DNA of 64,000 nucleotides from Escherichia phage AV108: sequence record OR352938.1, one strand, 5' to 3'. Positions within the stretch are counted from its first letter, which is position 1; every line of letters starts with the position of its first letter. This document shows, piece by piece, positions 28,338 through 29,171 of this stretch. A program made the translations under genes and the position numbers. Below the pieces are notes generated by a model that was not told the origin of the DNA, did not search any database, and worked only from the letters and a program-made list of their open reading frames with translations.

Positions 28338-28673
28338 TTATCCTTTCTTAAACAAATTGCGAAGCCAGTATACAAACGGGATTTCTTTAAACTTGAATTT
28401 CTCAATAGTTAATTCTTTAGTAGCAAGATGAATACCATAAGCATCATGTGTAACTATATGCCATTTTCTATAGTCCAAATGTGAACAACCGTCTGGATCT
28501 AGGTTAATAAGAGTTTCTCGCTCACTAGGATTATTTTTCCACAATTTTGTAATAGGATCGCACATAATTCGACCTAGCGTACCATGAATAATCTCACAAC
28601 GGTAAAGTTTTCCAGCAGTGAGATAGGCGCACCCGTCATAGTCGGTATAAACAAACACTTCTTTAACACTCAT
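28338..28673 (-). CDS. small protein, two-repeat member of the GCSHL-motif family (111 aa)
   Basis: Repeats DYDGCAYLTAGKLYR and DPDGCSHLDYRKWHIV; paralogous to 28735..28980 and 28977..29171. Confidence 0.5.
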   Translation of the reverse strand: MSVKEVFVYTDYDGCAYLTAGKLYRCEIIHGTLGRIMCDPITKLWKNNPSERETLINLDPDGCSHLDYRKWHIVTHDAYGIHLATKELTIEKFKFKEIPFVYWLRNLFKKG

Positions 28674-28736
28674 TTTAATACTCCTTTGTTGTTTCGATGG
28701 GGGTATATTACTACCCCCCGATCATGTGTGTCAACT
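28674..28736 (-). promoter_or_regulatory. PeSL-like early promoter-leader cassette
   Basis: Minus strand GTTGACA, hairpin gggggtagtaatataccccc containing TAATAT -10, leader ...aaaggagtattaaaATG. Confidence 0.55.
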
Positions 28737-28980
28737 ACTTTTTCAAGATTTTTTTGATTGCATTCCAAAGACCTTTATTCCCAGGTTGTTTTGGTTCTTC
28801 GATCAGTGTCCATGTTCGACCGTCTAAGTGTGCACAATTTTTAAGACAAATAAAAATCTGGTGTCCCTTATCATCACGGATATAACCACTATTCGCAAAT
28901 CTTTCATGTGGTGTATATTCATACAGTGTATTTGGTGTAATATACTTGCGGTTACTATAAGGTGTCATCACATACATCAT
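28735..28980 (-). CDS. small protein of the GCSHL-motif family (~81 aa)
   Basis: ATG at 28980 overlaps the upstream stop (ATGA); YEYTPHERFANSGYIRDDKGHQIFICLKNCAHLDGRTWTLI. Confidence 0.5.
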   Translation of the reverse strand: MMYVMTPYSNRKYITPNTLYEYTPHERFANSGYIRDDKGHQIFICLKNCAHLDGRTWTLIEEPKQPGNKGLWNAIKKILKK

Positions 28981-29171
28981 GGTACTAACTCCCAACGATC
29001 ACCGCGAAGATGAGAACATCCACCATCAAGAAGTATCGTAATACGATAACCTATATCATCTTTGATGTAACCGATTGTCGGTGGATTTTCGTCGTCTCGT
29101 GCCGGGGTAAAATCATACATCTTTCCAGGCGTAATATCTTGTCCTTTATTGCTATTGGTATAAACTTGCAT
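28977..29171 (-). CDS. small protein of the GCSHL-motif family (64 aa)
   Basis: YDFTPARDDENPPTIGYIKDDIGYRITILLDGGCSHLRGDRWELV; AGGAG RBS. Confidence 0.5.
   Translation of the reverse strand: MQVYTNSNKGQDITPGKMYDFTPARDDENPPTIGYIKDDIGYRITILLDGGCSHLRGDRWELVP

Follow-up and report, generated by a model that had tools for sequence, protein, structure and literature searches.

Three tandem paralogs beside regB in Krischvirus phages share a predicted SH3-like beta-barrel

Three small open reading frames (ORFs), here named orfC, orfB and orfA, lie in tandem between a nucleotidyltransferase gene and regB of Escherichia phage AV108. We analyzed them within a 64,000-nucleotide (nt) stretch of that genome (OR352938.1; hereafter the window), which belongs to a Krischvirus, an RB49/JSE-like phage of the T4 type. 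Alignment and profile comparisons show the trio to be ancient tandem paralogs with one copy of a common domain each, and structure prediction renders that domain as a five-strand SH3-like beta-barrel of ~60 residues. We give an even chance to the reading that these barrels act as early accessory binding modules with roles split among the paralogs. The ORFs and their PHROGs were already catalogued, though undescribed; the new points are the assigned fold and its sequence signature, how widely the family is spread, how old the triplication is, the behavior of the locus as a hot spot, and the rejection of the metal and two-repeat ideas discussed below. The three genes are as follows, with lengths in amino acids (aa).

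28977..29171, minus strand: orfC, 64 aa, ortholog of RB49 ORF097c
28735..28980, minus strand: orfB, 81 aa, ortholog of RB49 ORF096c
28338..28673, minus strand: orfA, 111 aa, ortholog of RB49 ORF095c

Paralogy and predicted fold

A first-pass annotation of this DNA had described three small minus-strand ORFs between regB and the nucleotidyltransferase, and both the coordinates and the neighbors proved exact. Its proposal that the three are tandem paralogs also holds, as BLASTP, phrog_6261 matches and leave-one-out hidden Markov models (HMMs) each place their similarity beyond chance, and formal alignment and HMM comparison find significant similarity among all three. BLASTP aligns orfC with orfB at 40% identity (E 6e-13), orfA with orfC at E 1e-4 and orfA with orfB at E 2e-3. 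The phrog_6261 profile matches orfA (E 1.1e-37, aa 3-76), orfC (1.3e-28) and orfB (6.4e-6), and phrog_15978 matches orfB (E 2.3e-60) and orfC (1e-7). Among the 986 six-frame ORFs of the window, HMMs built from a single paralog type retrieve the other two only, and an HMM built from an unrelated metagenomic homolog, P0016, retrieves the trio only (E 5e-8, 7.5e-8 and 3.7e-4). Profile search of the same 986 ORFs found no additional family copies in the window.

The longest of the three, orfA, had been described as two repeats. The family profile instead finds one domain, at aa 3-76; comparison of the N- and C-terminal halves yields E 0.77, and the 35-residue tail does not match the family profile (E 0.19-0.21). 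An internal duplication was rejected because there is a single profile domain, the halves are dissimilar and the AlphaFold2 (AF2) model contains one barrel, which leaves 28338-28673 as a single domain plus a tail.

The predicted layout of the domain comprises five strands, an RT-like loop, a distal hairpin with D-D-x-G, a 3-10 helix with C-x-H-L, and a last strand that opens with an invariant Trp. In the AF2 model of orfC (predicted local distance difference test score, pLDDT, 87.9), strands span residues 2-4, 19-23, 33-37, 43-47 and 61-63, and the 3-10 helix at 53-55 carries C-S-H-L. This protein is the bare acidic barrel (pI 4.75) and the most canonical member of the family. In orfB the barrel occupies aa 1-61 and is followed by a linker rich in Pro and then by a C-terminal helix that is cationic and amphipathic. 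The AF2 model of orfA, built from 66 sequences, contains one divergent barrel whose strands lie between residues 5 and 83 and most of which reaches pLDDT 90 or higher. The barrel has a ~20-aa insertion and is followed by a low-confidence linker and a C-terminal helix (pLDDT <50 at residues 87-111; helix 101-109). BFVD models of homologs superpose with TM scores (template modeling) of 0.74-0.95. The models display the features of the SH3-like small beta-barrel class, namely five strands, a 3-10 helix before the last strand and superposition on SH3 domains, and the trio is a new sequence variant within this known fold class.

At the sequence level, the domain stands apart from described families. 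Neither the trio nor its homologs have a significant match in Pfam, NCBIfam or, by sequence, the PDB (Pfam scan cut-offs E<=0.1 for the three ORFs and E<=0.01 for 52 homologs). FosA-like matches of orfA reach 13-19 bits against cut-offs of 180-305, and PDB sequence matches have E values of about 0.1 or higher. The canonical SH3 families (SH3_1, SH3_2, SH3_3 etc.) were rejected as a home for the domain, with no Pfam match and different conserved columns. The SH3 domains of p40phox, DNMBP and Grb2 share 6-13% identity with the trio domain, and no SH3 Pfam model matches it. The canonical ALYDY, WW and P-x-x-Y peptide-binding motifs of SH3 domains are absent, and the phage family instead carries T-x-G-K-x-Y, D-D-x-G and C-x-H-L...W. 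Comparison was also made with Gp54 of Escherichia phage Bas11 (PDB 9AXB), a small accessory protein that triggers CapRel-SJ46. In contrast to the trio domain, Gp54 has six strands and lacks the 3-10 helix; with 6% identity and no sequence-level match to the family it falls outside it, and there is no indication of CapRel triggering by Krischvirus proteins.

Evolution of the trio and breadth of the family

To describe selection on the locus, the ratio of nonsynonymous to synonymous substitution rates (dN/dS) and the synonymous rate (dS) were computed for the window against 13 other genomes.

orfC: dN/dS 0.24, dS 0.19
orfB: dN/dS 0.24, dS 0.35
orfA: dN/dS 0.12, dS 0.06
nucleotidyltransferase: dN/dS 0.04, dS 0.10
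regB: dN/dS 0.05, dS 0.10

With dN/dS of 0.12-0.24 in the trio versus 0.04-0.05 in its neighbors, the three genes are real, functional and under purifying selection, yet they evolve faster than their flanks. Over the 2-kb trio region, the window shares 97-99% identity with 58 Krischvirus genomes, RB49, Phi1, JSE, GEC-3S and ECD7 among them, and orfB occurs among Krischviruses in two allele classes that are ~72% identical. Bounded by the conserved nucleotidyltransferase and regB genes, the trio forms an island that evolves fast and swaps alleles. Divergent metagenomic relatives keep the order RlaP-C-B-A-RegB, and their orthologs cluster by position (protein identity of 75% for C, 57% for B and 37-41% for A). 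The triplication is therefore old, and all three copies have been retained. Nucleotide identity to one such relative, L021, is 85-98% in the flanks, 55-90% over orfC and orfB, and 35-59% over the orfA barrel. Identity to L021 reaches 97% in the final 60 nt of orfA (28341-28400, minus strand), a tail-coding stretch that overlaps the regB ribosome-binding site. Conservation at this end of orfA points to a nucleotide-level constraint or a recombination anchor.

The slot itself is a hyperplastic cargo site. In T4, the same slot between regB and vs.6 likewise holds three small early ORFs, vs.3, vs.4 and vs.5. These were rejected as homologs (best HMM E 0.022, 3.7 bits, among seven T4 proteins), and their composition does not look beta-barrel-like. 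Two loci depart from the usual arrangement of the trio. In phage FL04 (positions 1501-1681 of the locus), orfC is frameshifted and annotated as a 41-aa remnant, which suggests either that orfC is dispensable there or that the sequence contains an error. On one ENA scaffold (positions 45-296), a hybrid ORF, P0005, joins the orfC N-terminus to the orfB C-terminus, and orfA and regB come directly after it; it arose either by unequal recombination that left two genes in place of three, or as an artifact of assembly that fused the paralogs.

An exhaustive profile search over 1.84 billion representatives returned 350 clusters (E<=1e-3); their median length is 68 aa, and most are stand-alone proteins of 58-70 aa. 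Bare barrels account for 113 of the 147 non-redundant members; another 12 have short tails and 22 have longer, uncharacterised C-terminal regions. Two or three domain copies occur in three proteins of the family. Against Pfam and PHROGs, the fused regions of the longer homologs yielded only DUF3704, one precomputed DUF3310 and a sub-threshold Tad2-like segment, and every PHROG match among them is labeled 'unknown function'. The trio matches PHROGs 6261 and 15978 over the full domain (E 1e-60 to 6e-6), and distant homologs match both profiles too. Neither PHROG carries a function, fold or motif description, and the family reaches further, to phrog_10169, phrog_4927, phrog_13152 and the ~350 metagenomic clusters.

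Cultured carriers comprise Krischvirus, Vibrio phages of 133-141 kb, Pseudomonas KIL phages, Drexlerviridae, Jedunavirus and an Acinetobacter phage, and in every one of them the gene is labeled 'hypothetical'. Family genes always lie within arrays of small unknown genes, whether in early or nin-like regions or in islands between structural genes. Most family loci hold a single copy, and the triplet is specific to Krischvirus-like phages. A locus search with a 12-sequence alignment gave 5 viral loci. No relative was found in representative bacterial genomes, a weak negative given that a single peptide pattern was used.

Two further loci bear on copy number. A short T4-like contig, L024 (positions 98-298 and 616-813), carries one clear member, and two genes upstream of it lies a degenerate copy (E 0.014) without C-x-H-L and Trp; both copies lie just upstream of a regB homolog. 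Another tandem case is found in phage W011D (positions 3977-4923), where a 70-aa member is followed by a 245-aa protein with a weaker N-terminal copy of the domain (E 1.3e-4).

Co-occurrence with the adjacent nucleotidyltransferase across phages, raised in the first-pass annotation, does not extend beyond one lineage. Adjacency of the trio to this RlaP gene was seen only in Krischvirus-like genomes, and none was present within the fetched flanks of 10 non-Krischvirus family loci (9 non-T4-like loci and contig L024). The link is best described as lineage-specific synteny, since family members occur in other phage types without such a neighbor. A functional module with the NrdC.11/RlaP nucleotidyltransferase was rejected for lack of co-occurrence outside Krischvirus-like genomes.

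Signature residues, tails and candidate roles

Conservation was computed over 152 non-redundant domain instances and is given below in orfC numbering.

Y19: 100%
W60: 99%
T14: 95%
K17: 93%
D39: 93%
I36: 91%
C52: 89% (Ser 9%)
H54: 88% (Phe/Tyr/Trp 11%)
G41: 87%
G16: 86%
L55: 84%

These positions would mostly define the fold, as turns, core and barrel caps, rather than a metal center. Y19 and W60 are probably core or cap residues, because strand alternation puts both on the side of F21 and L62, and the conserved Gly and Asp appear to sit in turns. The motif first proposed for the trio survives in part. C-x-H-L...W is common to all three proteins, whereas T-P and GYI-x-DD-x-G are found only in orfB and orfC; the G-C-S-H-L element reads N-C-A-H-L in orfB, with the C-x-H-L core kept.

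Outside the barrel, orfB and orfA each end in a basic amphipathic segment.

28738..28779, minus strand: orfB C-terminal tail, NKGLWNAIKKILKK, hydrophobic moment 0.78, net charge +5
28347..28373, minus strand: orfA predicted C-terminal helix, aa 101-109, within the tail IPFVYWLRNLFKKG, tail hydrophobic moment 0.65, charge +3

Comparable cationic amphipathic tails occur in the unrelated members P0092, P0148, P0029 and P0128, so a barrel plus an amphipathic helix is a recurrent architecture. The membrane-targeting helices of MinD and FtsA are also short, cationic and amphipathic, and they too follow a flexible linker at the very end of the protein. For the FtsA tail, the computed hydrophobic moment is 0.78, comparable to those of orfB (0.78) and orfA (0.65). 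In contrast to these helices, the orfA tail also overlaps the regB translation-initiation region. In phage JSE (locus positions 4812-5081), orfB encodes 89 aa versus 81, and an indel near its 3' end swaps the last residues of the amphipathic tail for a different C-terminus.

The expression signals of the trio are the following.

28705..28734, minus strand: sigma-70-like promoter TTGACA-18 nt-TAATAT, directly after the orfB stop and upstream of orfA
28699..28718, minus strand: 7-bp GC-rich hairpin GGGGGTA-GTAATA-TACCCCC, overlapping the promoter -10 hexamer
29181..29184, minus strand: GGAG in the orfC Shine-Dalgarno sequence
28989..28992, minus strand: GGAG in the orfB Shine-Dalgarno sequence
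28681..28684, minus strand: GGAG in the orfA Shine-Dalgarno sequence

The ATG of orfB overlaps the stop codon of orfC (ATGA). The promoter-like site is an annotated promoter in phage GEC-3S and is kept in 11 of 13 relatives. The whole block, TTGACA-N9-GGGGGTAGTAATATACCCCC (28699-28734, minus strand), is likewise kept in 11 of the 13 with a varying spacer, and its -10 hexamer falls in the hairpin loop and 3' arm; the hairpin is not a classical terminator, because no U-run follows it. GGAG is the cleavage motif of T4 RegB. All three trio Shine-Dalgarno sequences hold it, which by analogy with T4 suggests early mRNAs inactivated by RegB, whereas those of regB and the nucleotidyltransferase lack it. 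By this analogy, the trio mRNAs, with GGAG in every ribosome-binding site, would be shut off by the neighboring RegB nuclease.

If the barrels are binding modules, the proteins would be early, dispensable accessory factors whose rigid barrel offers variable loops and surfaces to a macromolecule of the host, or possibly of the phage, in the service of host takeover or counter-defense. Roles may be split, with orfC acting as a free acidic barrel and with the linker and cationic amphipathic helix of orfB and orfA anchoring the barrel at the inner membrane or on a partner. Several points weigh against this reading. No family member has an experimental function, and no binding partner is on record. 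The early timing is argued from position, promoter-like sites and analogy with T4, and the assignment of residues to core or surface from the alternation along strands and the pattern of substitutions. The invariant Tyr and Trp, with the Lys, Thr, Asp and His conserved at ~90%, could instead form a conserved ligand pocket. Lastly, conservation of the orfA tail includes synonymous sites, so it may reflect a nucleic-acid constraint or recombination anchor by regB, not protein function.

Five competing explanations were weighed, and each is less likely, and less well supported, than accessory binding modules. Such a pocket would find its use if the proteins were oligomeric sponges or binders of a small-molecule or nucleotide signal, like Tad1, Tad2 and Acb2, with Tyr, Trp, Lys, Thr, His and Asp lining a site shared across hosts. 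The same polar and aromatic residues are kept in phages whose hosts differ widely, as one would expect for a universal ligand more than for strain-specific protein targets; the proteins are small, acidic and encoded in accessory regions, and one homolog, P0134, is fused to a Tad2-like/DUF2829 segment. However, that match lies below the Pfam threshold (20.4 bits versus a cut-off of 25) and is confined to a single protein, a distant fusion, where it covers part of the model within the C-terminal portion, and Tad2/DUF2829 (PF11195) has no match in the trio. There is no similarity to known sponge folds, and strand alternation turns Y19 and W60 toward the core. We consider sponges unlikely. A RegB-linked regulator, with orfA as an antitoxin-type partner whose disordered linker and C-terminal helix fold onto RegB, is decidedly unlikely. 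RegB is a RelE/YoeB-like endoribonuclease; the orfA stop codon lies 4 nt from the regB start, with the regB ribosome-binding site inside orfA; and in orfA a folded domain at the N-terminus is followed by a linker of low pLDDT and then by a helix at the end. In addition, the orfA tail hardly varies even where identity in the barrel has dropped to 37-41%, and in L024, too, a family member lies shortly before regB. Against such a partnership, T4 has vs.3, which is unrelated, in the place of orfA, regB in L024 is immediately preceded by a gene for an unrelated 85-aa protein, most family members are in phages without regB, and the 97% nucleotide identity of the tail takes in synonymous sites, suggesting an RNA or DNA constraint or a recombination junction.

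Small barrels that bind nucleic acids, such as Sso7d, KOW, Tudor and the integrase C-terminal domain, offer another precedent, in which the basic tails of orfA and orfB would add affinity. We judge this quite improbable. The domain is acidic family-wide (median net charge -4, consensus pI ~4; orfC has the pI noted above), which weighs against direct nucleic-acid binding, and the profile shows no conserved basic surface. The first-pass annotation had read the conserved Cys and His as a metal site, that is, as mini-proteins in which the pair would coordinate Zn or Fe, possibly across a dimer interface, for a redox or structural purpose. Cys52 and His54 are among the better conserved positions, and the C-x-H spacing could give a homodimer two ligands per chain. 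Inspection of the 152 domains nevertheless reveals these two candidate ligands only, with no further conserved Cys or His column, where a metal site would be expected to keep three or four ligands that are invariant or lost together; in 37 of the domains there is a single Cys in total. Cys gives way to Ser in 14 domains and His to Phe, Tyr or Trp in 16, independently and never jointly, as expected for packing residues of the 3-10 helix rather than for a metal site. A natural orfB allele reading S-C-A-Y-L is maintained in 4 of 13 Krischvirus genomes (E26, JK32, Skers and 011D4), and Pfam searches of the trio and the 52 homologs gave no zinc-finger or zinc-ribbon match. Metal binding is highly improbable, and the idea can be dropped whatever the role of the family. 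Finally, non-functional filler, whether decaying duplicates or mis-called ORFs, would account for the orfC frameshift in FL04 and for the lack of a function on record. It has so slight a probability, in view of the dN/dS of all three genes, a gene order kept in relatives at 57-75% protein identity, the strong ribosome-binding sites and the ATGA coupling of orfC and orfB, that we exclude it outright.

A bolder form of the binding-module reading, which we regard as rather unlikely, makes the family a new and widespread class of counter-defense or host-takeover proteins, in which an SH3-like barrel bears a distinctive T-x-G-K-x-Y / C-x-H-L / W signature. Each paralog would neutralize a different host factor or sequester a signaling molecule, two of them at the membrane, and such a class would explain why the trio is a hypervariable, allele-swapping island. 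Three anonymous ORFs of phage 'dark matter' now belong to a domain family with a predicted fold, a signature, ~350 relatives in many types of phage and a defined evolutionary behavior. If a host-interaction or anti-defense module is correct, hundreds of small phage genes would be annotated at once, and RB49-like phages, which are used in phage therapy collections, would gain three testable accessory factors; if not, the family stays an ordinary uncharacterised family of small proteins.

Genomic setting of the trio

In descending coordinates and all on the minus strand, the gene order is vs.6, HNH, nrdC.11, orfC, orfB, orfA, regB, vs.1, vs and tk.4. The neighbors with assigned domains are listed below.

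30552-30965, minus strand: vs.6, GrcA-like glycyl-radical domain
29910-30503, minus strand: HNH/NUMOD4 homing endonuclease, between nrdC.11 and vs.6
29193-29891, minus strand: nrdC.11 nucleotidyltransferase, Pfam RlaP, E 3.4e-14
27911-28333, minus strand: regB, Pfam REGB_T4, E 2.6e-48
26397-26852, minus strand: tk.4, macro (ADP-ribose-binding) domain

Both vs.6 and tk.4 are conserved neighbors that flank the variable island. The trio genes are annotated coding sequences in JSE, RB49, Phi1 and other Krischvirus genomes; across the 58 genomes they are labeled 'hypothetical protein' save for orfA in a few records. A search of the literature on RB49 ORF names, the PHROG identifier and Krischvirus anti-defense found nothing about the trio genes. 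GenBank calls orfA 'endoribonuclease' or 'RegB' in JK32, Skers, 011D4 and probably G2248. Since orfA has no match to the Pfam model for RegB, this name was likely carried over from the neighboring gene.

The HNH/NUMOD4 endonuclease is a mobile insertion directly adjoining the variable trio. It is absent from RB49, Phi1, GEC-3S, ECD7, E26, Skers and G2494, and present in the AV108 window, JSE, JK32, FL04, MIZ4, phiS and 011D4.

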